A model generated the notes under the pieces. That model was not told the origin of the DNA. It saw only the letters and a program-made list of their open reading frames with translations, and did no database searches. This document shows positions 10,217-23,869 of a stretch of 64,000 nucleotides of DNA, piece after piece; position 1 is the stretch's first letter; each line of letters begins with the position of its first letter. A program made the position numbers and the translations under genes. The stretch is from contig OY969559.1 of the NCBI GenBank assembly GCA_963701075.1, positions 352,001-416,000 on the forward strand, given 5' to 3'. Source of the DNA: an uncultured Nitrososphaerota archaeon (GTDB taxonomy: Archaea > Thermoproteota > Nitrososphaeria > Nitrososphaerales > Nitrosopumilaceae).

Positions 10217-10336
10217 ATTTTAGCTGAGATCGATTTTCCCTTATTATTTCTTTATGTAGACCAAAACCCATGATCTACCGAATTTTTGATAATGCAGAAC
10301 GATGTTTTTAAATTAGGAAAAGTGAGCGAACAATGC

Positions 10337-11660
10337 ATGTCACGTATATCACCACGTGTTGCTTACAATGAGGTATTATCGCTGCTCAAGACACATAACC
10401 AATGGTTTGCAAATTCGATTCCATTAATTGCAAGTGAGAACATTCCAAGCCCCGCAGTTAGGGAAGCAATTGCTTCTGACTTTGCAAATAGATATGCAGA
10501 AGGTTGGCCGGGTGAACGTGTCTATGCTGGATGCACCTACATAGACAAGGTAGAGTTTAGGTGCATGGAACTTGCCCAGAGGTTATTCAAGGCAGAGTTT
10601 GTTGATGTAAGGCCAATCTCTGGTGTTGTTGCTAACTTGGCAATCTATTCTGCATTTACCAATCCAGGAGATGTAATGCTTGCACCGTCGATTCCATCTG
10701 GCGGCCATATATCACATGGCAAGAAGGAACATGCAGGTACTGCAGGACTTGTCCATGGACTAGATATCGAGTTTTATCCATTTGATGCCGAAGAGATGAC
10801 AATTGATGTGGACAAGACAAAGCAAAAGGTGCAAGAACTTGAAAAGGCAGGCAAGACCCCAAAGCTTGCTATGTTTGGTGGCTCGGTCTTTTTGTTCCCT
10901 CATCCAGTAAAGGAACTAGCAGATTTTCTCAAAAGTTACAAGATGTTCATAAATTATGATGGAGCACATGTTGCAGGACTAATTGCAGGCGGCCAGTTCC
11001 AAGAATCCTCTCAGAGAGGGTGCTGATGCAATGACCATGAGCACCCACAAGACCTTGTTTGGTCCTCAGGGAGGTATGATATGTTCATTTGACAAGTATA
11101 GTGACGAAATCAAAAAGGCAACTTTTCCAGGAATGACAAGCAATCATCATTTGCACCACATGGCTGGAAAGGCCATTGCGTTTGCAGAGATGCTAGAATT
11201 TGGCAAAAAATATGCAGTCCAAGTAGTCAAGAATGCAAAGGCCCTAGCAGAAGCCTTGAGCTCATCTGGTTTTATGGTACTTGGAGAGAAACGAGGATTT
11301 ACAAAATCACATCAAATTGTAGTAAATGTTCTTTCATTTGGAGACGGTGGCACCATTGAAGCTGATCTAGAAAAAGCAAACATCATCATAAACAGACAGC
11401 TTATTCCTGGGGATATCAAGGCAGGACGTAACTACTTCCACCCTGGCGGCATGCGACTTGGGGTTGCCGAACTAACAAGACTTGGCATGAAAGAATCTCA
11501 AATGAGGCAGGTTGCAGAATTTATCAAAAATGTAGTTGTTGATAAAAAAGACAAAAAGAAGATTGCACTAGAGGTCAAGCAGTTTAGAAAAAAATTCCAG
11601 AAGGTTCACTATTGCTTTGAGAGCAAGATTGGCGGATACGACTATGTCAAGATTCGTTAG
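10337..11660 (+). CDS. glyA: Serine hydroxymethyltransferase; apparent frameshift at ~11003
   Basis: LIASEN, RYAEG, GGHISH, DGAHVAGLIAG, STHKTLFGPQGG (PLP Lys); split over two ORFs. Confidence 0.96.
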
Positions 11661-14600
11661 GCGTAATCTGTAAGCAAGGCCTGGCTACCATCTTCTTTAC
11701 CAAATACAAGTTCAAGCTCGTCAAGTAAAGAGAGGACCCTGCCTCTCAGGTATGGCTCAATTCTATACTTGCCAAGCATTCTTTTTGCAAGCTTGAGATA
11801 TTTTTGAACAGACGGCCTTGTCATTGTTTGAATGAGTTTGTTTTCACACTCTAGACATTTTCCTGCAAGAGGAATTCTTCTATAACTTGCACCGCATGAC
11901 GTACACCTAAATGATTGGCCTGAATATGCCCTAAGGTTTCCCATGATGTCAGGCAAAAGGTGGGTGGTCATTACCATAGAGACCACCTCGCTTGGGTCTA
12001 CCGCATTGATAATATCTGCAGTCCTAATTTGCATGTCTAGTTTTTCAAGAAGTGATCCTAGCGTAGAATATGCGCTGCGCGATTTTGATGTGGTAAGGGT
12101 GCTGGTACTGTGCGTGAATCCATAGCCATAGAATTGTCTTTCAGTCTCCAGCCTTGATTTTAGAATTTCAACGCCTTTTATCTCACTTGCTTTTTCTTTT
12201 TGTAGCGTCGCCTCAAAAAATGACAGAGGGTAGCTGTTTGCTATCTCAAAGTTGTGAGCTTGTCTTTGGACTTCTTGCGGTATAACGATTGGCTGCACAA
12301 GCAGTGGTGCATCCATCAGCCCTCCAATTCTGTCAGACAGAAACAATCTTGAAAAGTTAAGCAGGCTGTCCATCAATAGCATGATCGAGTCTGCGTCACC
12401 ATCGGCATCCCTTCTTTTTGCCGAGTGCCACACGGCAGTACCAAGACAGACTTGGGTATTGGTATAGCCAATGATTCTTCCCACAATTCCAACAGATGTG
12501 TGCGGCGCAAGCCCAATTATCAGGTGACCGACCAAGTCATCGGTCTTTTTTGCATTATAGTATGTAGGATGGGCAAATAATTTTACAAGTTCCCTGTCCA
12601 AATATTGGCAAACTAGAACCAAGATTTCTCCACACTCTCTTGGAATTATGACATCCTGAGTTTTCAACTCAATTAGCTGGTCTTGGTTTACAAGCGGTTT
12701 GCCTTCAGTATCATGTGTATATCCAAGCTCTACAAGTTTCTCAGGTGTTGTGCCAATCCATGACGGCTTGAAGTGTGAGAGGGGTGCGTTTGTTGCATCG
12801 AATCTGATTGTGCCGTCCTTGAATACATTAAGATTCAAGCTCTGTCGTATGAGCCCTTTTTCCAGTGGCTCTGGCACGCGGTCTTGGTTGATAAGTTCCC
12901 TTACTCCCTTGAATGGTTCCTGAGCCCTAACGCCTGTTCTTTCCTGTGCAGAATACAACAGTTCCTTGAGGGGAAATGCGCGATATGAGTGAGCTGACGC
13001 CCTAACCTTACACTTGGGGCAGCGAGCCTCTTCTAGCTCATCGCGACATTTTGGACAGACAAATGTTACAACAGTCTTGGTCTTGCATCGCTGGCATATT
13101 ATACTAATTGAAGGCAGATTGCAGTTTTTGCACATTCTGTTATTGATGTTGCAGTAAAAGTTGGGTTGTTTTATTGCCTTGAGAAGATCGCGTGATGCAC
13201 CACCCTTACTTCCAACCGGAAAGAGTGTATGCACTGGAGGCTTCATCTTTCTAAGTGATGCCTTTTCAGGCCTGCCGACCCTTACACCTACTGCCGTTGA
13301 GAACTTGGGCCTTATCTTGATTCCTGATGAGATGGAGATTATTTCTGGAACTGACAGTGTCTTGTCCAATTGAATTGGCTTTCTAAAAAGCAAGTAAGAG
13401 AAAATTTTTGCCTCGTCGTCTTTTAGCATGATTGTGTCGCCTGCCAATTCGTGAGGCACGCCAAGTTTTTCCAAGATCTCTTTTATGTCTTTTTGATAAA
13501 CTATTAGATCTGATTCTATCTTGTCTGGATTGAGGATCTTTTCTAGTTCTTCAACTGTAATCTGGTCCCAATAATACAGATAGTGGGGGTGGAGTCCGAT
13601 TCCAAAGTTAAGTGATATTCTAAATGCCTCTTCAAGATCTGGAATCTTGTGTATGTTACTTAATAGATCAGGGTCGTCTGGTTCATACTTTGCAACCTTT
13701 TCTTTTAGTTCCTCAATCCAGAACTCCTCAACATATCCTGTTGGGACAAGCTCTGCGTTGTTCTCAAGAAAGTCGCCATAGCTTATGAGAATGTCTCCAA
13801 GATGTAGAATTTTTTCAATGTGAGGCTTTAACTGAATCCCGTGGGAGGTGTCCCTTATCTTGACTACATTTCCATTGTCTAGCCTGACAACTGGAGTATC
13901 AATTGAATCGACAAATGCAATAGTTGAGGCTTTTCCTGGGATGTCAAGTTTTATCTGGGTGCCAACTGCAATAACGTGATCTAAAATTTCTGCAACGACT
14001 GGATGAACCCCAACTGATGCAAAGCCTGTGTTGCATGCCCGTCCATATCGTAACCTAAACCCGCCAAGTTTTTTTGGCATCGAAAGAACAGACCTGCCAG
14101 TAATTACCTCTCTCATTCTATGTGCTGCTGCATCCTCGTCTCCAGTCTGGATGGCGCCCTTTAGGTCCTTGAGCCACTCCCAGCCATCTAACTTGAATAA
14201 ATCAATGAGTTTTAGCAGCTTGCGAGACCTGCCAATGAGCCCATCGTTGAGTACACGAAGTGCCCCTCCCCTAACTCTGTTGGTGTTTATTCTTACCATG
14301 TTTCTGTGACTTACAATCTCTACTGGATCGGTATCTATGCCGTTAAGCTCCACAGGAAGGTTGGAAATGGTAGTTATCACATCTTCATCAGGAACATGGA
14401 ACTGAAAGCTTCCTACTTCTCTCTCATAGAGACGTAATTCCTCTACAAATCGGCCCGTCTCATCATCGTAGGAGTTGGCTTTGTACTTGCCAAGTCCGGC
14501 AATTTTGCGTACATGGTCTGCAATAAGTATGGTAGATGCTGCTTCCGTACCCCCTGCAGAACGTATGGGTCCTGCAAATGATACTGACAGATAGTCAGAG

Positions 14601-15031
14601 CCATCGGCGTTCTTCTTTATCTTAACCTCACTTATTCCCTGAAGAGGGGCTATTGTCACGCCTTCAGTCACTATTGCAAGTCCCACACGCACCGCCAAGT
14701 CAAGCTTCTCTTGCAGCTCTGTCTCAGGACCGGAATACTTGCCCTGGGCTATCTCTTCTGCAAGTTTGAGTGCCGCTAGCTCCTTTGTTGTTGTCTGGAT
14801 GAGGTTTCGGAGATTTTCCGTGACGTCAATGTCGTGCATTTTGGATACTCGATCAGCCAAGTCAAACGCTATCTTGGGCTCCACCATTCCAGAGGAATCT
14901 GCCAGTGTAGCCTTTGCAGCGGCAGCTTTTTCAAAAATAGAAAAGACCTCATTTGATAGATTACTGTAATATTCAAAATATGACTCTGGCATTGGGACTT
15001 CCTTGAGTCTCAATGCAATATTTTCAGACAT
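11657..15031 (-). CDS. polC: DNA polymerase D large subunit DP2
   Basis: AGPIRSAGGT, GGFRLRYGR, GRPEKA, FKDGTIRFDATN, HSAKRRDADGDAD catalytic motif, Zn fingers. Confidence 0.97.
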   Translation of the reverse strand: MSENIALRLKEVPMPESYFEYYSNLSNEVFSIFEKAAAAKATLADSSGMVEPKIAFDLADRVSKMHDIDVTENLRNLIQTTTKELAALKLAEEIAQGKYSGPETELQEKLDLAVRVGLAIVTEGVTIAPLQGISEVKIKKNADGSDYLSVSFAGPIRSAGGTEAASTILIADHVRKIAGLGKYKANSYDDETGRFVEELRLYEREVGSFQFHVPDEDVITTISNLPVELNGIDTDPVEIVSHRNMVRINTNRVRGGALRVLNDGLIGRSRKLLKLIDLFKLDGWEWLKDLKGAIQTGDEDAAAHRMREVITGRSVLSMPKKLGGFRLRYGRACNTGFASVGVHPVVAEILDHVIAVGTQIKLDIPGKASTIAFVDSIDTPVVRLDNGNVVKIRDTSHGIQLKPHIEKILHLGDILISYGDFLENNAELVPTGYVEEFWIEELKEKVAKYEPDDPDLLSNIHKIPDLEEAFRISLNFGIGLHPHYLYYWDQITVEELEKILNPDKIESDLIVYQKDIKEILEKLGVPHELAGDTIMLKDDEAKIFSYLLFRKPIQLDKTLSVPEIISISSGIKIRPKFSTAVGVRVGRPEKASLRKMKPPVHTLFPVGSKGGASRDLLKAIKQPNFYCNINNRMCKNCNLPSISIICQRCKTKTVVTFVCPKCRDELEEARCPKCKVRASAHSYRAFPLKELLYSAQERTGVRAQEPFKGVRELINQDRVPEPLEKGLIRQSLNLNVFKDGTIRFDATNAPLSHFKPSWIGTTPEKLVELGYTHDTEGKPLVNQDQLIELKTQDVIIPRECGEILVLVCQYLDRELVKLFAHPTYYNAKKTDDLVGHLIIGLAPHTSVGIVGRIIGYTNTQVCLGTAVWHSAKRRDADGDADSIMLLMDSLLNFSRLFLSDRIGGLMDAPLLVQPIVIPQEVQRQAHNFEIANSYPLSFFEATLQKEKASEIKGVEILKSRLETERQFYGYGFTHSTSTLTTSKSRSAYSTLGSLLEKLDMQIRTADIINAVDPSEVVSMVMTTHLLPDIMGNLRAYSGQSFRCTSCGASYRRIPLAGKCLECENKLIQTMTRPSVQKYLKLAKRMLGKYRIEPYLRGRVLSLLDELELVFGKEDGSQALLTDYA

Positions 15032-15032
15032 G

Positions 15033-15782
15033 CTATTTCCTTACGGACTGGATGGTTTTTACTATATCTGCTATTGTTTTGAAACTTCCGCCTTTTTCAA
15101 TAAATGTGCCAATGACTATGGCGTCAGCACCTGCCTTTACGATCTCGCCAGCAGTATGGGTATTTCGAATTCCTCCACCAACTATGAGAAATCCCTTGAA
15201 GAGTTTTCTAACAGCTGCTACCATCTCTGGCCTGACGTTTGATTTTGCGCCAGAACCTGCTTCAAGATATACAAATCTCATACCCATGAATTGCGCGGAC
15301 AGGGCATACATGGCTGCCAAGCTTGGTTTGTCAAACGGGATGGTTCTTGCAGAACCGACATGCCATACTGTTGTGCCCTCACCGATTATGATATAGGCTG
15401 TTGGCAGAGGCTCGAGGCCAAATCTAAGTACATTTGGAGCCCCCAATGCCTGAGCTTGAGAGATAAAGTATGGGTTATCAGAGTTCAATAGAGAGCTGAA
15501 CAATATGGCATCTGCTCCAGGAACAACGCCCGTAACATTTCCTGGAAATAGTATCACGGGAATCTTGACAGATCTTTTGATGTTTTTGACGGTTTCTGTC
15601 ATGGCTATCTGGTCAGTTGCAGATGAACCTCCAACCAGAATGATTGAGGCGCCACTTTTTTCTGCATCCTTGGCAAGCTGTGATGCAGAATTTTTTCCGT
15701 CATTTTCAGAGTCAATTAATACGAAGAGTAAAGCCCCTTTCTTCTTTCTGGAGGCGTTTAGGTATCTTTCTACATTTTGCAT
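15033..15782 (-). CDS. Geranylgeranylglyceryl phosphate synthase (GGGPS)
   Basis: LID, VGGS, ILFPG, SLLNS, YLEAGSGA, VGGGIR motifs. Confidence 0.93.
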   Translation of the reverse strand: MQNVERYLNASRKKKGALLFVLIDSENDGKNSASQLAKDAEKSGASIILVGGSSATDQIAMTETVKNIKRSVKIPVILFPGNVTGVVPGADAILFSSLLNSDNPYFISQAQALGAPNVLRFGLEPLPTAYIIIGEGTTVWHVGSARTIPFDKPSLAAMYALSAQFMGMRFVYLEAGSGAKSNVRPEMVAAVRKLFKGFLIVGGGIRNTHTAGEIVKAGADAIVIGTFIEKGGSFKTIADIVKTIQSVRK

Positions 15783-15846
15783 ATGACTGGTTGATAACTA
15801 TTCGTTAAAAGTTTAATTGAATAAAGTTATACAGATATGTATAGCT

Positions 15847-16209
15847 TTGAGCACACTTCCAGACGATAATTTGAATAATATAATAAAACAAATTATAAAA
15901 AAATCATCGTTTACAGAGCGCCAAATTGAAATTATTTTAAAAAGGCGGAACCTATCAGACTCGCAGTTTACCATAACTAAGGGGGCTTTCTACAGGCAGG
16001 TTGGGCAGTCTCAGGAGAAGTTCCAGGCGTTATGCTATTCTTGGATACTGCTCAAATCGCTAGGCATTCTTCGTGAAGAGGATATGGATGTGATAAATCG
16101 CCTCTCAGAGCAGGTTTCTGTGATAAAAAATAGTGATGTTTTTCCTGAACGTGAGGAACAAGTCATCACTGTGATACAAGAGTTACTAGCACGAATGTGT
16201 AAACTGTGA
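15847..16209 (+). CDS. Conserved hypothetical protein with putative HTH
   Basis: SSFTERQIEII...ITKGAFYRQVGQ resembles a terminal HTH; divergent from GGGPS. Confidence 0.65.
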   Translation: MSTLPDDNLNNIIKQIIKKSSFTERQIEIILKRRNLSDSQFTITKGAFYRQVGQSQEKFQALCYSWILLKSLGILREEDMDVINRLSEQVSVIKNSDVFPEREEQVITVIQELLARMCKL

Positions 16210-16442
16210 TTTTTTATGCGTGTGAACATGTTTGCACGAATAATTTGTGATAAATGTATTTATGATTGATGTGCATTGTGTAAAATTATTTTACTCGAAC
16301 ATGATAAATCACATTAGCTTATGATATGTAGTGATGTTAGTAGACATAGACGTAGAAACGATTTTGGGCGTGATAGTCTCGTTTGTGATTGGTGTTGTAT
16401 GCATAGCAGTATACAACAAAGTTAAACCACGTCTAGGTTCAC
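16073..16442. repeat. Dense array of GTGA/TCAC (core TGTGAT) motifs
   Basis: TGTGAT at 16089, 16119, 16170, 16205, 16246, 16384 and ATCACA at 16308; 15 GTGA/TCAC in ~370 bp by manual count. Confidence 0.6.
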
Positions 16443-16891
16443 AGAGTAACGATCTAAAAATTTTGGTAGAACGACTGCAATATTATGAAAATTTACTAAT
16501 AGATATGAAAATAAAGTTAGATTCATTAGAACTGGCCAAAGAACCTGAAGAACTTGTGCAGGCACAGATTCCAAAGCCAAAGGAGCAGAAGCAAGAGCCG
16601 GCCATAGTCATGGAGGTAAAAGAGGAGAAACCAAAGGAAAGAGTACACAATATGAGTTTTGGAAGCGCGATAGAGTATGTACTGCGATTAATCACAGAAA
16701 AACCCATGACATCACGTGACATCCAGGTCACAATAGGAAGGACCCGGGAACATACATCACGCATGATGAAGAAGCTCTTTGAGGAGGGTTTGGTTGAACG
16801 AGACATGCGGACAAAGCCCTTTACTTACAAGATAACTGAAAAAGGGCTCATTAGGATAGGGTCGCTAAAGGCTCCAACAGTAGAAAGCTAG
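16331..16891 (+). CDS. Membrane-anchored winged-helix (MarR-like) protein: TM - coiled coil - linker - wHTH
   Basis: TM ILGVIVSFVIGVVCIAVY; heptads LQYYENLLIDMKIKLDSLEL; wHTH MTSRDIQVTIGRTREHTSRMMKKLFEEGLVER...YKITEKG. Confidence 0.85.
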   Translation: MMLVDIDVETILGVIVSFVIGVVCIAVYNKVKPRLGSQSNDLKILVERLQYYENLLIDMKIKLDSLELAKEPEELVQAQIPKPKEQKQEPAIVMEVKEEKPKERVHNMSFGSAIEYVLRLITEKPMTSRDIQVTIGRTREHTSRMMKKLFEEGLVERDMRTKPFTYKITEKGLIRIGSLKAPTVES

Positions 16892-17062
16892 TAGGGTTTT
16901 GATCCTGGTCTGATCAGGTTCTTTGATTCTTGTTTAGAAGTATTTTGATTGCTACAAAACCATCCAAATGGGTTTTTGGGTCAAAAATAGAGAAAAATTA
17001 GCATAAATTATTAATCTTATTTTATTATAAAATCTTAAATTATTGAACTTATAATAAATGGT

Positions 17063-17218
17063 ATGTCAGGCGTGGAACAGCTCATAAAGATTACCTCTGC
17101 AGGCACAATCTCAATCCCGAAGGACTTTAGGAGATATCTTGACCTTCAGAAGGGAGATTATGTTAAGGTAACAGTCGAGGGGGATCGTTTGGTTGTCAAA
17201 AAGGCAACAATTTCCTAA
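17063..17218 (+). CDS. AbrB/MazE/SpoVT-family DNA-binding protein (51 aa)
   Basis: Manual translation MSGVEQLIKITSAGTISIPKDFRRYLDLQKGDYVKVTVEGDRLVVKKATIS*; below the ORF-track cutoff. Confidence 0.88.
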   Translation: MSGVEQLIKITSAGTISIPKDFRRYLDLQKGDYVKVTVEGDRLVVKKATIS

Positions 17219-17610
17219 GTCGTAGGCCGTTCTCTTTGGGCTAGTTTGAGTATCTGGTAACTCCATTCCTTTCCGTTTCTCTCTCTTCCAACTCTTCCTT
17301 TAAGAGCAAACCTTGAGAGGTATGTGGATATCACACTTAGTTTAATTGGCTCCTCATACTCGTCCTCATATTTTTCAAGGATCATTGAAGAGGTAAACTT
17401 GCCCATTGGGAAGTGCTTGTCCACAATATTCCATATTTTGGCCCTAATGGTATCAAGGTGTACTGATTCCTCTGGCTCCTCTATATTCATCAAATCCATT
17501 AACTCGAATATCTTTAGCATCTTTTCACGGGTAACATTGCCCTCTAGGCTAAGGTTGTACTTGGCGCCTTCTGCATCTTCTAGGTCTATTCGTATTCGTT
17601 TTCGGGCCAT
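17215..17610 (-). CDS. Hypothetical protein with N-terminal beta module and C-terminal winged helix
   Basis: FTSSMILEKYEDEYEEPIKLSVISTYLSRFALKGRVGRERNGKEWSY fits a wHTH; divergent from cdc6 across the origin. Confidence 0.75.
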   Translation of the reverse strand: MARKRIRIDLEDAEGAKYNLSLEGNVTREKMLKIFELMDLMNIEEPEESVHLDTIRAKIWNIVDKHFPMGKFTSSMILEKYEDEYEEPIKLSVISTYLSRFALKGRVGRERNGKEWSYQILKLAQRERPTT

Positions 17611-17764
17611 TGTGATCGATCAGGTTAACACCTTAACACTTGAACAGATCATAGAAGAATTGTTAACAATCAAGTTTGTTAACATTCACTGCGTAACCCA
17701 GGCGTGGGCACTTTTCCCATCTTAACAGGCTTCCCCTTGCTTTTATCCAAAGGTAGGCCAAAAC

Positions 17765-17790
17765 CATGCCTAGAGTGGAAATAAAGGGGT
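17765..17790 (+). repeat. Origin recognition box (ORB) copy 1
   Basis: CATGCCTAGAGTGGAAATAAAGGGGT; resembles the archaeal ORB (..CAGTGGAAA..AAAGGGG) with G-string. Confidence 0.88.
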
Positions 17791-17826
17791 CCATTTAGGC
17801 ATATTAACAATGTTAAGGACCATCTT

Positions 17827-17852
17827 CATGCCTAGAGTGGAAATAAAGGGGT
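17827..17852 (+). repeat. Origin recognition box (ORB) copy 2
   Basis: Identical 26-mer, 62 bp after copy 1. Confidence 0.88.
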
Positions 17853-17925
17853 TATTTTGGGCTTTTCGTGGCTCTATCTTAACACCAACTTCACTGATTG
17901 TTAACCAGTTCTAGGAATACCCACA

Positions 17926-17945
17926 CACCTATTCTTCCACTCTAG
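17926..17945 (-). repeat. Inverted ORB-like element
   Basis: Reverse complement CTAGAGTGGAAGAATAGGTG shares the 11-bp core CTAGAGTGGAA. Confidence 0.75.
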
Positions 17946-18082
17946 CTTTATTAAAAATAATTTTTTTAAGAAAATAAAAATAATTAATGATATACTAAAT
18001 TTGAATTAGTTATTCTGTTCTAATCTAATTAGTATGGTAGAGTCCATATGTGGACAGAGAAGAAACGATGGTGTGTGGGTTG

Positions 18083-19291
18083 ATGACACGAGATCCAATT
18101 GATAAATTACTTGATGATGCAGCAAGCGGCAAATCATTATTCAAGAATAGAGAGGTATTGCATTTTACATTCATACCAGACATGGTACTGCATAGAGATG
18201 ACGAACAAAAAAAAGTTACCCAGTCACTTATTCCATTATTGAAAAAAGCTAGGCCATCAAACCTATTGATATATGGAAAGCCAGGCACGGGCAAGACACT
18301 GGTTGTAAAAAAAGTACTAGACAAGATCCAAGAGCGGGTCAAGGACGGCTCATTTCCAATACAACTACTATATGCAAATGCAAAAGAAGAGACCACACTA
18401 TACGGCCTTTTGGTAAAATTTGGCCGCCAGTTGGGGCTTGCATCACAAAAGGAGCTACCGACAACCGGACTATCAATCAGTGAAGTCTTCAATAGGCTAA
18501 TAACAGTAATCGAAAAGAATGCCCTCAATACAGTCTTCGTAGTAGATGAGATTGATTATCTGGCAGAACTAGTATCAAAGACAGGAAAGGATGTCTTTTA
18601 TTCATTAACACGAGCAAATGAGAGACTGAAAAAGGGCTCACTTACCTTGATTGGCATATCAAACGACCTGACATTCAAAGAAAGGCTAGACCCACGAGTT
18701 CTAAGCAGCCTAAGTGAGGAAGAGGTTGTCTTTACCAACTATACAGTTAACCAGATCAAAGAGATATTGATAGACAGAATCAAGGAAGCCTTTATTCCAA
18801 ATATAGTGGACCCGGCAGCCCTGAATCTGTGCGCTGCAATGTCAGGCCAGGAACATGGCGATGCCAGGCGGGCAATAGACCTACTTCGTGTGGCAGGCGA
18901 GATAGCAGAACGAGAGCAGTCTGATATTGTAAAAGAAGACCACATTCGCAGAGCATCATTGAAGATGGAAGAGGATAAGGAGACAACAGCACTCAACTCA
19001 TATCCCCTCCATGAAAAATTACTCATACTTGCAGTAATGAAGGCAAACGGCAACAGTACAGGTGAGATATACCAGTCCTACAAGAATCTCTGCAAGGTTA
19101 CTAGACAGAAGGAGCTCACACAGCGCAGAATAACCCAAATGCTAAGTGAGATTGAGATGACAGGGCTAATCTCAGGCAAGATAATCCACCAGGGCATGCA
19201 TGGAAGAACAAAGAAATTTGCTTTGACACTAAATCCAGATACTGTAAAAAAGGCATTCAAGGAAGACTTGGCCCTAGAAGATCTTCTGTAA
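18083..19291 (+). CDS. cdc6: Orc1/Cdc6 replication initiator
   Basis: LHRD, YGKPGTGKT, VVDEID, LIGISND, GDARRAIDLLR, C-terminal wHTH. Confidence 0.96.
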   Translation: MTRDPIDKLLDDAASGKSLFKNREVLHFTFIPDMVLHRDDEQKKVTQSLIPLLKKARPSNLLIYGKPGTGKTLVVKKVLDKIQERVKDGSFPIQLLYANAKEETTLYGLLVKFGRQLGLASQKELPTTGLSISEVFNRLITVIEKNALNTVFVVDEIDYLAELVSKTGKDVFYSLTRANERLKKGSLTLIGISNDLTFKERLDPRVLSSLSEEEVVFTNYTVNQIKEILIDRIKEAFIPNIVDPAALNLCAAMSGQEHGDARRAIDLLRVAGEIAEREQSDIVKEDHIRRASLKMEEDKETTALNSYPLHEKLLILAVMKANGNSTGEIYQSYKNLCKVTRQKELTQRRITQMLSEIEMTGLISGKIIHQGMHGRTKKFALTLNPDTVKKAFKEDLALEDLL

Positions 19292-20722
19292 CTAATCTTC
19301 TTTCTCGGTAAAGTCTTTTGTAAAGACCTTCATTGTGGCCAAGTTGATAATTATAGCTATTCCAGGTGTTGGCACTATGCCGCCACTTGCTTGATAGTCA
19401 GTCTGGCTCTGCCAGGCCCCGGAATTGACTATCAACGTTCCCTTGTACATGTCAAGGTCGACAACATGAACATGACCGGAATGAAAGATATCTGGAACTT
19501 CATTTATCACCATAAAATCTTCAAGCTCAGGTGCAATTGGAGTACGCTTCCCATAAATCGGGCTGAGATGCCTTGTCCTCAACAATGCCCGCATTGCCCT
19601 TGCTGGCTGTGCATAGCTTAGGCCCGGAGTAGTTCCTACTACATCATCAAGGCTCTGACCGTGAAACATCAACACCTTTACGCCATTGAGATCCAAAAAG
19701 GCAGGATTTCCTAACATGAAAAAGTTCTCTCTATTCCACAAACTCATATTGTGTTTTTCCGGTATGGCAGGCTGGGGAAGAGCCCTTCTACCTGGATCGT
19801 GGTTGCCAGGAATTATGAATGTCTTGATGTGTTTTGGAATCTTGTCTAGCATTTGGGCAGCCTTTGCCATCTGCTCGTCCATATCCATGATAAGCAACTC
19901 CTTGTCTTGATTTGGAAAGATTCCAATCCCATCAATTATGTCCCCACCTATCAAGAGAAACCTGACCTTTCTTGCTACTGGATCGGGGCTTGAAAGCCAG
20001 GAAATAAAATCTGTAAACTCCTTTTCCATAAAGTACTTGCTACCTATGTGAATATCTGATATCAGGACAGCATACGTCTCAGTCTTTGAGCGATTTGCTA
20101 TATGATCTGGGACGTCTGGGACTAGAAGCTCCTTTGCGATAAATCCGCCATTTTTGCCATTTGTAACGCCCACCATTACAAACTGGTCCATTAAAAGCGA
20201 GTTTGCAGTCTCCTGCAATTCTTGATTCCACACTAGAATCTCTACAGAACCGGTAGGATCATCTACTACTATCTTGGTTACATCTCGCTCGATCTTTCTG
20301 TCCATCAGAAGGCCTGCAACAAACGTCTCCTCGCCAAGCTTACCATCTGTCACATTTTTAATTGGCGTAAGTTTCTTTGCCTGTGATCTCTGCATCATTA
20401 TTTTAAGTAGTTTTGAGTATCTGTCAGAAAAAAGCGCTGTAAAACCATCTATTCCCTCTGCCGACGTGATCTTTTTTGTAGGATCAAACAATATCTCATG
20501 CCTATCCTCAACACTACCATCAACTTCTGACTCTACAAACATTTTGAGGTCGCTCTGATTTATCAAAAACAAGTTTTGCTTTGCCTTTTCACGAACAACC
20601 TGTTTAATTATATTCTGGAGTTCCTTCACATCTATCTTTTCTAATATCTTAAAAGCATCAGGATGAATCTGAAATCCTCTACTTAGGGCATATGTTACTG
20701 CTGAGGACACCTCTTCTTTCAC
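19292..20722 (-). CDS. polB: DNA polymerase D small subunit DP1 (proofreading exonuclease)
   Basis: OB fold with DDPTG; SDIHIGS, GDIIDG, PGNHD, FHG, HLSP, GHVH calcineurin-like motifs. Confidence 0.96.
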   Translation of the reverse strand: MKEEVSSAVTYALSRGFQIHPDAFKILEKIDVKELQNIIKQVVREKAKQNLFLINQSDLKMFVESEVDGSVEDRHEILFDPTKKITSAEGIDGFTALFSDRYSKLLKIMMQRSQAKKLTPIKNVTDGKLGEETFVAGLLMDRKIERDVTKIVVDDPTGSVEILVWNQELQETANSLLMDQFVMVGVTNGKNGGFIAKELLVPDVPDHIANRSKTETYAVLISDIHIGSKYFMEKEFTDFISWLSSPDPVARKVRFLLIGGDIIDGIGIFPNQDKELLIMDMDEQMAKAAQMLDKIPKHIKTFIIPGNHDPGRRALPQPAIPEKHNMSLWNRENFFMLGNPAFLDLNGVKVLMFHGQSLDDVVGTTPGLSYAQPARAMRALLRTRHLSPIYGKRTPIAPELEDFMVINEVPDIFHSGHVHVVDLDMYKGTLIVNSGAWQSQTDYQASGGIVPTPGIAIIINLATMKVFTKDFTEKED

Positions 20723-20798: not shown

Positions 20799-21338
20799 TT
20801 GTTGGTAAAAAGACGAATCTTAATTTTTCTGATCTTCATTGCAATATTTTCAGTTTCATATTCTATTGGCAGTGAAAGCAACATATCCGAAGAAGATTCC
20901 AAGTCATTTGTTAAAGACTTTCAACATACTGTAGAGGGAATCGACGCAATAGGGATTTTTACTCATAACACAACTGTTGCATTGCCCATGTTCCTGCCAG
21001 GCTTTGGAATAGCTTGGGGTTCCTTTGCTGCGTGGTCAACTGGGCTGGCCTTTAAGGCATTGGTATCTACCACACCAGCACTTGCAAAACTTCCACCACT
21101 TGCAATAATCTACCTCTCACCTTTTGGCGTAATGGAGCTAATTGCCTATTCCATTGGAATGTCAAGAAGCTTCATTCTCATCAATACAATACTGAGGAGG
21201 GGAAACCTCAGAGAAATGCTGCGTCCAACAGCAATTGAAATAGGAATTGTGGTTGCATTGTTACTGGCCGCAGCATTCATTGAATATGCCATGATTCAAG
21301 AATTTGGATCGGCATTGGTTCATCCCAAAACGCACTAG
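20799..21338 (+). CDS. SpoIIM-family membrane protein
   Basis: IFTHN, PFGVMEL, LLLAAAFIE motifs; multiple TMs. Confidence 0.8.
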   Translation: MLVKRRILIFLIFIAIFSVSYSIGSESNISEEDSKSFVKDFQHTVEGIDAIGIFTHNTTVALPMFLPGFGIAWGSFAAWSTGLAFKALVSTTPALAKLPPLAIIYLSPFGVMELIAYSIGMSRSFILINTILRRGNLREMLRPTAIEIGIVVALLLAAAFIEYAMIQEFGSALVHPKTH

Positions 21339-21373
21339 ATTCATTTTTATTTTAAAACAAAACAGTCAAGGTA

Positions 21374-22108
21374 ATGCTCGGTCTTAAAATTCACACACTT
21401 CCAAAACTAAACAAGCCCATAATGATAACTGCACTTCCAGACATGGGAAACGTTGCTGGAATTGGAATGGATTTTCTTGTAAAAAAACTAAAAGCAAAAC
21501 TATTTGCAGAGATCTATGCGTTCTGGCCGCCAGCAGTCTCATATGAACAAGGGCTGATAAAATATGATCAATCAAGCTACAAATTTCATTATTCACAAAA
21601 GGAAAACATTGTGTTCTTTTCAGGAGAGTTTAATCCCTCTGATCCCCGACGTCTTTACGAACTGTGCTATGAGGTAGTTGGCATGGCAAAAAAACTCAAA
21701 GTAAGTACGCTTTATTCCATTGGAGCTATCTTGAGGCAACCAAGTCCTGCCGAACCAAAATTATTTGCTGCCGCAACAACACCAAAATACCTAAACTTGT
21801 TAAAGAAGAAAAATTTAGAACTGCTCAATACGCAAGGCCAGATAACTGGCTTCAATGGGTTGGTATTAGGAATTGCAAAGGAAAAGCAGCTTGACAGCAT
21901 TTGCATTCTGGGAGAAATAGACAATCCAAACGTCATTCAACCAAGGTCAGCTAAACTAATACTTGCAAAACTTTTGCAAGTTCTAGAGCTTGGACCGCTG
22001 GACATGAAAGAACTAGACGAGGAGGAAAAGAGAAAACAGTTCATGGAACAACAAATGAGCTACATGAATGGACTAGCGAAAAGAGATAATCAACCGGGAA
22101 TTGCCTAA
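21374..22108 (+). CDS. Proteasome assembly chaperone (PAC2 family)
   Basis: ALPDMGNVAGI, GQITGFNGLVL, ICILGE, PRSA motifs. Confidence 0.85.
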   Translation: MLGLKIHTLPKLNKPIMITALPDMGNVAGIGMDFLVKKLKAKLFAEIYAFWPPAVSYEQGLIKYDQSSYKFHYSQKENIVFFSGEFNPSDPRRLYELCYEVVGMAKKLKVSTLYSIGAILRQPSPAEPKLFAAATTPKYLNLLKKKNLELLNTQGQITGFNGLVLGIAKEKQLDSICILGEIDNPNVIQPRSAKLILAKLLQVLELGPLDMKELDEEEKRKQFMEQQMSYMNGLAKRDNQPGIA

Positions 22109-22147
22109 TTGTTTGAAGAAATTATACCCAGCCATTAAATACGAGTT

Positions 22148-23869
22148 TTGAGTTTAGCTAATCAAATGAGGTCCAGTGTACTATCGCTAATTGCAATTAC
22201 GGGATTTCTAGTCATACTCTGCTTTCCTTCTAACGCATATTCTGATTTTGTATCTAGCGATGCATATCTGATCCAGGCCACAGGTTTTGTAGCCGGGACA
22301 CAAAACATTCTTGATTCCACATTTGACATACAACTAACTGCGGGCACTCAAAGTGGAAGCAGCATACTTTCTACACTAGATAATGGCATTGTTACAATTA
22401 ATGGCGATAACTATCTCAATTCTGGTAATTGGACAACCACCCTGTTACGAGATGGAAAATTTTTGCTTCTTAAAGGAAATGCACAGGACCAGAACGGCAA
22501 TACCATACAGATCAATCTCTTTGGAAGACAGATACAAAGCAATCAAAACGGTGTTGTTTACAGCATTACTGGCAAGATAATAGGTTCAGAGACATTCAGA
22601 GTTATTTACAGCGCAAAAATAATCGCTGCTGGAACATACACCCCGCCTGTCACTTCGCCAACCTCACAAACAACACCCACGCCACAACAGAATCAAACAC
22701 AATCAAATGTTGTGAGAATAAGTATAGTTTCTGGCGCATCCAATCCAACTAACCAGCTCTTCTTCTCTCCCTCAGTTACCACAGTAACTCCCGGCACTAC
22801 AATAATTTGGACCAACAATGACAACGTACCTCATACAATAATGAGCGGGGTGGCATCTGTTAATGGTGGGAATGCTTCCGCGCCAACATTTACTTCTGAC
22901 GGAATGATAAACAGTGGCACCATAGCTCCTGGCAAATCTTTTCAATACACCATAACCAGTTTTAATCCCAAAGCCTATCTTAGTGCATCAGCAGCACAAT
23001 ACCTGAATTTACCGGCAGATCAAACTACTGGCGATATCACATTCTTTGATCCTAACTATACATGGATGATAGGAGTGATAAGCCCCATGTCAGTCTCAAC
23101 TCAAACACAAACAGTCCAGATCAACATATTGCCGGGGGCATCAACTGCCACAACTAATCAATACATATCTCCATCTTCTGTACAAGTTACACCAGGCTCT
23201 ACAATTGTTTGGGTAAATCAAGACTCTGTTGCACACAGAATCTTGAGCGGTCAACAACAATCTACAACATTTGGTACTACTGGAAAGCCGATCCTCACAG
23301 CGCCAGCATTTAATCCTGATGGACATATTGACACTGGCACCATAGCTCCGGGCCAAAGCGTCAAGATCACAGTATCAGGAACAGGCCAATTTGCTTTTTA
23401 CGATCCATCAAATACATGGCTAAATGGTAACATTCTTTCGGTTTCACAAATACCCTCATCGTCAATACCGCCAGTGCAAGTAAGCATTTTACCGGGATCA
23501 TCAACAGCCCAAGGATCTTCCTCCCAACAAAATCAAAACTATGTTAATGGATATTATTCTCCTGACCAAATCCAGATTGTACCAGGCACTACAATAATTT
23601 GGACAAACAATGACTCTATTGCTCATTCAATATGGAGCGGTACCGCCACCTACAGACCAATTAATCCATACGTTCCAGACGGCAAGATAAAGAGTGGCTC
23701 AATAGCTCCGGGCCAAACCTTCCAGGTCACCATTAATGATACTGGAATCACTAGGTTCTATGATCCGTCATATACATGGATGAATGGTATGATTGTCTCA
23801 CTCCCATCCACGCAAACTCATACCCTCAACTCTGCAACATATACGGGCCCAACGCCAGTCCTTCACTAG
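22148..23869 (+). CDS. Secreted protein with three degenerate plastocyanin/cupredoxin-like domains
   Basis: Signal peptide; three repeats of I..GAS...SP...V.PG.TI.W.N.D...H.I.SG...DG.I.SG.IAPG. Confidence 0.85.
   Translation: MSLANQMRSSVLSLIAITGFLVILCFPSNAYSDFVSSDAYLIQATGFVAGTQNILDSTFDIQLTAGTQSGSSILSTLDNGIVTINGDNYLNSGNWTTTLLRDGKFLLLKGNAQDQNGNTIQINLFGRQIQSNQNGVVYSITGKIIGSETFRVIYSAKIIAAGTYTPPVTSPTSQTTPTPQQNQTQSNVVRISIVSGASNPTNQLFFSPSVTTVTPGTTIIWTNNDNVPHTIMSGVASVNGGNASAPTFTSDGMINSGTIAPGKSFQYTITSFNPKAYLSASAAQYLNLPADQTTGDITFFDPNYTWMIGVISPMSVSTQTQTVQINILPGASTATTNQYISPSSVQVTPGSTIVWVNQDSVAHRILSGQQQSTTFGTTGKPILTAPAFNPDGHIDTGTIAPGQSVKITVSGTGQFAFYDPSNTWLNGNILSVSQIPSSSIPPVQVSILPGSSTAQGSSSQQNQNYVNGYYSPDQIQIVPGTTIIWTNNDSIAHSIWSGTATYRPINPYVPDGKIKSGSIAPGQTFQVTINDTGITRFYDPSYTWMNGMIVSLPSTQTHTLNSATYTGPTPVLH

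Follow-up and report, generated by a model that had tools for sequence, protein, structure and literature searches.

A Conserved Origin-Flanking Cassette of Small Regulators in Thermoproteota, with a Predicted Membrane-Fixed, CRP-Type Winged-Helix Protein and Its TGTGAT Boxes

Introduction

Noc and RacA are bacterial sequence-specific DNA-binding proteins that link chromosomal sites to the membrane, and plasmid ParR/parC represents a system in which the centromere-binding protein acts as an autorepressor. For archaeal segAB, SegB sites are located upstream of segA, as given in the excerpted text of PMC5120986. SegAB is described for Crenarchaea and Euryarchaea only, and none for Thaumarchaea, in the excerpts of the reviews used here (PMC5120986; 2024 cell-cycle review). 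A small accessory protein of Sulfolobus, UBP, is needed for origin activity and binds a short motif (ucm) in origins that is distinct from the origin recognition box (ORB) (Dhanaraju et al. 2025, PMC12141716). The portion of that paper cited here portrays UBP as a nucleoid protein, rich in β-structure and saddle-like in shape, that has hundreds of sites; it reports no linkage of the UBP gene to an origin. Here, we describe a cassette of small genes, denoted O1, O2, and O4, which flanks the replication origin of an uncultured Nitrososphaerota archaeon. The window, meaning the whole 64,000-nucleotide stretch that was analyzed, represents positions 352001–416000 of a single 1.916-Mb contig with a G+C content of 38.6%. 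The genome encodes archaeal AmoA, and the NCBI entries near-identical to O4 and O2 carry Nitrosotalea names.

None of the nearest known systems is homologous to this cassette as a whole. O2 resembles the helix-turn-helix (HTH) proteins of the CRP/FNR group (E. coli CAP, Vfr, CooA) in the triad of its recognition helix, and the boxes beside its gene contain the CRP half-site TGTGA; unlike these proteins, it is archaeal, and a predicted membrane helix and a heptad helix replace the cyclic-nucleotide-binding domain. The location of multiple sites for a small, probably dimeric DNA-binder in its own promoter is shared with the centromere-binding autorepressors ParR/parC and SegB, and one array could by this analogy serve as both operator and anchoring site. 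The cassette differs from ParABS and SegAB in having no adjacent or in-window ParA, ParM, or SegA and in showing no homology to them. The concept of O2 joining defined chromosomal sites to the membrane is that of Noc and RacA, whereas O2 would use an integral membrane helix instead of an amphipathic helix or a DivIVA partner, is unrelated to them in sequence, and has a single site cluster in place of many dispersed sites. UBP and ucm provide a precedent for the TGT(T/G)AA repeats found between the ORBs, while O4 differs from UBP in being a winged helix-turn-helix (wHTH) protein encoded at the origin. Profile searches of the PDB retrieved no UBP chain for O1 and O4 (E ≤ 10) or for full-length O2 (E ≤ 1), and none was among the best 60 of 91 matches of the O2 wHTH profile (E ≤ 5). 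The wHTH of BlaI/MecI/CopY is matched by 16 of 17 relatives of O4 but below the cut-off by O4 itself, and the TACA..TGTA dyad of that family resembles a palindrome at O1; unlike these repressors, O4 carries its wHTH at the C-terminus behind a novel module of 45 amino acids (aa), with no BlaR/MecR-type partner. The preliminary description of this DNA knew of no account of such a system, and our search agrees in that none turned up; supplements were outside that search, and work on the N. maritimus origin may mention it.

Results

The O2 protein had been described as a transmembrane (TM) segment, a coiled coil, a linker, and a wHTH, all of which were recovered. Its N-terminal 19-mer is hydrophobic (Kyte–Doolittle 2.66), and residues 39–66 form a heptad stretch whose score was reached by 0 of 100 shuffles in a crude test. 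A variable charged linker occupies the middle of the protein and leads to residues 117–172, which match the MarR-like winged helix of Pfam HTH_27 at 25.8 bits (cut-off 22.2). The TM-like segment is kept in 49 of 56 O2 homologues, and 47 of the 56 carry more positive charge after this segment than before it (positive-inside), which fits an N-out, C-in topology. As only 4–12 residues precede the predicted membrane helix, almost no extracellular part is left. Homologues without the N-terminal membrane helix were observed at four loci (L051, L052, L061, and L068).

Four residues of the wHTH, R139, E140, H141, and R144, do not vary among the 32 sequences compared, which span the phylum. When its profile was searched against the PDB at E ≤ 5, of which the best 60 of 91 matches were considered, CRP-family proteins came first, namely Vfr (3.5e-4), CooA (1e-3), and E. 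coli CAP (0.01). Only the profile gave such matches; a PDB search with the single short helix sequence of O2 gave nothing. Profile positions 12–42 align ungapped to CAP 167–197, and in this alignment R139, E140, and R144 of the recognition helix (S-R-E-x-x-x-R-x-L-K-x-L) fall on Arg180, Glu181, and Arg185 of CAP. Those three CAP residues contact the T-G-T-G-A half-site, according to the excerpts of PMC11253593 and PMC2677863 consulted. Judged by its domain content, O2 is not a member of the CRP family, because no cNMP_binding domain was found at E ≤ 1, the N-terminus being a predicted membrane helix plus heptad helix, and because the Pfam models HTH_Crp_2 (21.9 bits, cut-off 27) and Crp (15.7 bits, cut-off 21) both remained below threshold.

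A TGTGAT array had been noted around O1 and O2, and it proved to be the densest such cluster of the 1.9-Mb genome. Its seven boxes cover the O1 3′ end, the O1–O2 spacer, and the O2 start (Table 1), and 3 is the most that occurs in any other 320 bp of the genome. The association of the boxes with O2 was evaluated in 70 loci, one per genome, by counting boxes from −150 to +50 around each gene start. The O2 start has at least two boxes in 40 of 55 loci (mean 2.73), and the corresponding counts are 1/53 for O1, 1/70 for O4, 0/57 for Cdc6, 1/32 for GGGPS, 0/35 for DP1, and 51/1400 for random positions. Cross-family box counts and spacer statistics exclude three unpublished genomes (G011, G012, and G019), which are included in the genus-level counts (relatives, array, and palindrome invariance) and in the 151-genome tally of O4. 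The boxes are placed between a TATA-like element and the O2 start codon, where tandem copies or palindromes of the form TGTGAT-N0-3-ATCACA are frequent, and boxes are nearly missing from the O4–Cdc6 spacers. They remain with O2 where two genes part it from O4 by 2.6 kb (L055, L064, and L066), as expected of an autoregulatory operator.

Deep lineages have only 2–6 boxes, and the array is enlarged in the host family to 2–9 boxes, reaching the O1 3′ end and conserved in both genus and family. Three boxes fall on O1 codons for x-Val-Ile, and third-codon positions of O1 are invariant at 4 of 7 sites inside boxes versus 24 of 123 elsewhere in the gene. Binding to dispersed promoters had been named as an outcome that would speak against a role at this locus. 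The genome has no other TGTGAT cluster, and its box pairs within 30 bp number 39 versus 37.8 expected; no O2 regulon of paired sites spread over the genome is visible. The proposal that the TM-wHTH protein binds the TGTGAT array as a centromere-like element gains support in one part: the boxes are associated with O2, whose helix is of the CRP type, but they follow O2 and not the origin. O2 is the likely TGTGAT reader because of its R-E-x3-R recognition helix and because the boxes follow its gene, and the pairing is probably that of an autoregulatory operator at least.

Additional boxes were observed in three settings. A second group of 2–4 TGTGAT/ATCACA boxes lies inside O2 codons 59–99 at five loci (L013, L014, L019, L022, and L023), in the stretch that encodes the last part of the heptad helix plus the linker. 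This group was seen only in families of the order, and two clusters 200–300 bp apart suggest looping or spreading. A lone perfect TGTGATATCACA palindrome at genome position 1208247, away from the cassette, is a possible second O2 site. At two loci (L056:5835–6467 and L060:5930–6562), O2 lies downstream of an HTH_3 plus CBS-domain gene, and the boxes in L056 are located at the shared promoter facing O1.

The cassette is conserved far beyond the genus. Of 41 relatives, 35 have O2 and 35 have O4, in each case including all 22 high-quality genomes, and 29 have O1. The full O1–O2–O4 order was found in 15 of 16 other genera of the same family, 13 of which contain AbrB, the fourth small gene of the locus. 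Thirteen genomes represent other families of the order; all of them place O4 no more than 3 kb from Cdc6, 12 have O2 directly convergent on O4, and AbrB occurs in 0 of 14 loci of such families. Other orders of the class (20 loci) have O4 divergent from the adjoining Cdc6 in 19 of 19 evaluable cases and O1 plus O2 in 14; other classes of the phylum (20 loci) have O4 beside Cdc6 in 12, O2 in the locus in 12, and O1 in 10. The three small genes keep their order across classes where cdc6 itself is only 40–50% identical. One family without O1–O2 at the origin (f23) was represented by 3 genomes, where the pair lies 4–11 kb from cdc6 on the same contig. Across the class, O4 was detected in 136 of 151 genomes, and in 110 of the 111 that are of high quality, essentially as a single copy; across the phylum, it was detected in 164 of 251 genomes, and eight families with at least two genomes were all negative.

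This distribution across order, class, and phylum indicates that O1–O2–O4 is an ancient core cassette and that AbrB is a family-level insertion. The preliminary description had placed four small genes between GGGPS–DP2 and oriC–cdc6–DP1, which agrees with the open reading frame (ORF) listing and Pfam, and had treated them as one module. The latter view holds for O1, O2, and O4 as a conserved core, not for AbrB as an equal part. Origin linkage of O1, O2, and O4 extends to relatives across every family of the order sampled, and both arrays, TGTGAT and the origin repeats, are conserved in relatives, so that the two conservation checks proposed at the outset came out in its favor. The reported absence of a ParA/SegA-type ATPase was also confirmed: AAA_31 and CbiA have zero matches in genome positions 352001–416000, and five elsewhere in the genome.

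Two ORFs of ~520–540 and 330–340 aa lie between O2 and O4 at three loci from other classes of the phylum (L055:2142–4677, L066:5318–7892, and L064:2159–4673). A Pfam scan covering L055 and L066 identified the larger ORF as a HerA-like ATPase (Pfam DUF87) and assigned no family to the smaller, and the L064 ORFs were sized only. A DNA-pumping ATPase between O2 and O4 may bear on the segregation idea.

AbrB matches PF04014 (MazE_antitoxin; 7.6e-11, 42.2 bits, cut-off 24.7) and TIGR01439 (4.3e-11, 42.3 bits, cut-off 28.3). It had been reported to be without a toxin partner, which is correct: its neighbors are O2 and O4 only, the same in 13 genera, and no toxin gene (PIN, MazF, etc.) of the kind expected in a type II toxin–antitoxin pair lies beside it. 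The possibility that AbrB is genus-specific was rejected, as it is family-wide. A PIN-domain gene was observed in a 1.2-kb O4–O2 gap in one family (L017:3206–3586).

O4 consists of 131 aa with one wHTH at the C-terminus (residues ~69–120). Its own score against Penicillinase_R, the BlaI/CopY-type wHTH, is 14.6 bits and under the cut-off of 22.6, while 16 of 17 relatives match this model at E ≤ 0.1 (best 1e-7), and the O4 profile matches PDB entry 2k4b (E 0.006). The gene is transcribed away from the origin, as had been described, and the wHTH of the earlier description is suggested by the relatives. The N-terminal module of 45 residues is conserved and had no match in the profile search, and the layout of BlaI/MecI/CopY, with an N-terminal wHTH and a C-terminal dimerization/sensor domain, is not that of O4. 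All database relatives of O4 (4641 matches) are named hypothetical. Regarding a WhiP/Cdt1 relationship, no CDT1 family occurs in the Pfam matches of O4 or its 16 relatives.

The 439-bp origin between O4 and Cdc6 contains the second array that had been noted, here resolved as 11 copies of TTAACA/TGTTAA interspersed with the ORBs, which form the top cluster of the genome. Among non-A/T hexamers of O4–Cdc6 spacers, TGTTAA is the commonest in some lineages, and TGTGAA or ATTCAC takes this rank in the remainder. In 43 of 58 such spacers, TGT[GT]AA is more frequent than in dinucleotide shuffles (z ≥ 3); the pattern had been picked after viewing the same spacers. Where O4 is not beside cdc6, the region upstream of O4 is mostly without repeats, indicating that the repeats track the origin. 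For the whole genome, skew minima do not localize the origin (RY 279,665 and GC-skew 124,605 versus oriC at ~369,700).

Clustering of TTAACA is not exclusive to the origin, as two further clusters were observed. A TTAACA-rich intergenic stretch with 9 copies and TTAACATGTTAA palindromes is located at genome positions 730388–730700 (L071:2089–2400), upstream of a 298-aa ORF without a Pfam family, and an 8-copy cluster at genome position 289162 lies inside a Laminin_G_3 ORF. These clusters imply that the origin motif may be the site of a general factor. A divergent second Orc1/Cdc6 paralogue with 30% identity is encoded at genome positions 1177990–1179141, and several relatives have similar paralogues.

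O1 had been considered a putative HTH protein, which was not borne out: no DNA-binding domain was detected with Pfam, NCBIfam, or the PDB profile. It has no Pfam or NCBIfam family, none of 24 distant members had a credible Pfam match, and its profile retrieved only designed helical repeats from the PDB (E ≤ 10). A Sigma70_r4 lead from the ESM Atlas at 0.81 only was not usable, nor did hhalign of O1 against O2 give anything usable. The probable start is the TTG at 15847, where the ESM Atlas record begins, at residue 11. The O1 family comprises 425 clusters at 50% identity with conserved polar residues Q36, R60, and Q64, and the gene is co-directional with O2, conserved, and nearly always adjacent to it.

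A palindrome, TATACA-N4-TGTATA, is present just upstream of this start, and its region is almost invariant within the genus. Of 53 loci, 26 have the strict form TA[TC]AC-N4-9-GT[AG]TA at the O1 5′ end, versus 0.013 expected per 180 bp. A CopY/BlaI-type operator is a TACA..TGTA dyad, TACANNTGTA, in the excerpt of PMC7253601 used here. Because the O1 palindrome holds this dyad, O4 is a candidate reader of it, which we regard as a lead drawn by analogy.

The features are collected in Table 1. Elsewhere in the window, a serine hydroxymethyltransferase (SHMT) gene is broken into two overlapping ORFs, which span SHMT profile positions 6–216 and 218–399; the split is a frameshift or an assembly error. 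The genes downstream of DP1 provide an ordinary context.

Table 1. Positions of the cassette, its motif arrays, and neighboring features in the window.
Feature	Position	Strand	Description
SHMT gene, broken	10286–11660		ORFs 10286–11026 and 10983–11660
DP2	11657–15031	−	ORF listing and Pfam
GGGPS	15033–15782	−	ORF listing and Pfam
O1 palindrome	15828–15843		TATACAGATATGTATA; just upstream of O1 start TTG 15847; candidate operator
O1	15847–16209 (ORF opens 15817)	+	Small helical protein, orphan family
TGTGAT/ATCACA array	16089–16389		7 boxes: + 16089, 16119, 16170, 16205, 16246, 16384; − 16308
O2	16331–16891	+	Predicted membrane helix, heptad helix, charged linker, C-terminal CRP-type wHTH
AbrB	17063–17218	+	51 aa, AbrB/SpoVT-type, without toxin partner
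O4	17215–17610	−	Conserved N-terminal 45-aa module and C-terminal BlaI/CopY-like wHTH; transcribed away from oriC
oriC	17611–18049		439-bp O4–Cdc6 spacer; three ORB elements, 11 TTAACA/TGTTAA, A/T-rich tract
TTAACA/TGTTAA repeats	17624–17905		11 copies
ORB-like repeats, direct	17765–17800, 17827–17862
ORB-like repeat, inverted	17925–17945
A/T-rich tract	17946–18035
Orc1/Cdc6 initiator	18050–19291	+	Pfam Cdc6_lid 3e-24, Cdc6_C 6e-21
DP1	19292–20722	−	ORF listing and Pfam
Genes downstream of DP1	20799–23869		SpoIIM-like membrane protein, PAC2-family protein, 573-aa multi-cupredoxin protein

Discussion

In the reading that we propose, O2 is fixed in the membrane, probably as a dimer, and binds the boxes of its own promoter with a CRP-type HTH, and O4 is the likeliest binder of the origin spacer or the O1 operator; the probability of this reading as judged from sequence is about one half. 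The cassette would then be an ancient set of small origin-flanking regulators, each with its own cis element. The N-terminal helix of O2 would anchor the protein in the membrane with the N-terminus out and the C-terminus in, the heptad helix would probably dimerize it, and the winged helix on its flexible linker could reach the TGTGAT boxes over its own promoter and start codon. O2 would at least be an autoregulated, membrane-fixed DNA-binding protein. Occupancy of the boxes would also keep origin-proximal DNA at the membrane, because the only dense box cluster of the genome lies 1.5 kb from the ORBs. O4 is envisaged as a soluble BlaI/CopY-like winged-helix protein whose gene is divergent from cdc6. 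It is also the most likely protein to read the TGT(T/G)AA repeats that lie between the ORBs, the TACA-N4-TGTA palindrome at O1, or both. Reading of these sites by O4 would couple expression of the cassette to the control region of the origin and cdc6.

Several observations weigh against this proposal. O2 resembles CRP only modestly (HTH_Crp_2 below cut-off), and its half-sites abut (N0-3) or repeat directly, versus the N6 dyad of CRP. At O2, 7 of 55 loci lack a box although the recognition helix is unchanged. The O1–O2 pair is 2.6–11 kb from the origin in the f23 genomes, L055, L064, and L066, and O4 is not beside cdc6 in 8 of 20 phylum-level loci. What pairs O4 with its motifs is adjacency plus the TACA/TGTA dyad of its family, and TTAACA clusters of 9 and 8 copies occur at two other places in the genome. 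The related genomes are non-independent samples. The preliminary description, in which the TM-wHTH protein would anchor the origin and the soluble wHTH and AbrB proteins would license or time initiation, is weakened in that DNA binding by O1 is unsupported and AbrB does not occur beyond the family.

A further step is that tethering itself is the selected function, for segregation, positioning, or timing, which we consider doubtful. Equally doubtful in our view is the fuller version, where O2 would grip the TGTGAT array and O4 would decorate the origin, and together they would serve, in lineages without SegAB, to position, segregate, or time a single origin. Against a tether, the boxes cover the promoter and start codon of O2 and accompany this gene where it has left the origin, some lineages have few boxes or none, and the cassette is linked to no motor protein. 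A tether is favored by the extreme positional conservation, by an O2 without a sensing ectodomain, and by a box cluster unique in the genome. Moreover, 3 of the 4 O2 homologues lacking the membrane helix are neither beside cdc6 nor preceded by TGTGAT boxes, a comparison from a small sample of non-independent cases. Alternatively, O2 might be an ordinary signal-controlled, membrane-tethered, self-repressing transcription factor, inactive while at the membrane and perhaps released by proteolysis, with O1, O4, and AbrB as unrelated small regulators and the proximity to the origin a matter of inherited gene order or of gene dosage in early replication rather than of a role there. This is the main alternative and is less likely than our proposal; in its favor, the boxes overlap the O2 promoter and start as a classical operator does, move with O2 and not oriC, and number just 2–6 in deep lineages, and the window offers no ATPase partner. 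GGGPS and DP1 are also kept in the block in many lineages, which means that plain conservation of synteny occurs here. It does not readily explain why three tiny genes keep their order across classes though cdc6 is 40–50% identical, what O2 would sense with almost no extracellular part, why neither a second box cluster nor a pair excess (39 vs 37.8 expected) marks a regulon, or why the array of the family is enlarged to 7–9 boxes over 300 bp.

The identity of the reader can also be questioned. Given that O1 is co-directional with O2 and nearly always beside it, the box association by itself cannot separate the two, and the conserved polar residues Q36, R60, and Q64 of O1 would be compatible with its reading of the boxes. 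That O1 or O4 reads TGTGAT and O2 binds something else is nevertheless improbable: O1 has no detected DNA-binding domain, the O4 start has at least two boxes in just 1 of 70 loci, and the R-E-x3-R triad by which CRP recognizes TGTGA is present in the O2 helix. Most remote is the explanation of the arrays as functionless by-products of coding sequence or base composition, which is largely refuted by conservation. The hexamers are short and three boxes coincide with the x-Val-Ile codons of O1, but the genome maximum is 7 versus 3, the third-codon invariance is 4/7 in boxes versus 24/123 outside, conservation of the boxes in non-coding DNA extends over several classes, and the origin repeats are supported by dinucleotide-shuffle controls.

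Conclusions

Newly seen at this locus are the link of O2 to TGTGAT, its CRP-type helix, the palindrome at O1, and a range of the cassette that spans the phylum. They address the question of how the origin is controlled and segregated in ammonia-oxidizing and related archaea, for which the cassette offers three candidates by name, together with a prediction of which protein reads which site: O2 would pair with TGTGAT through residues R139, E140, and R144, and O4 with TGT(T/G)AA and/or TACA-N4-TGTA. One of the candidates, O4, has no family assignment even though nearly every genome of the class carries it as a single copy. Even if these proteins are only regulators, the cassette is a marker for finding origins in uncultured Thermoproteota. 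If the tether reading is true, O2 and its boxes would represent a molecular form of the membrane attachment site of the replicon model, ancestral to much of Thermoproteota.

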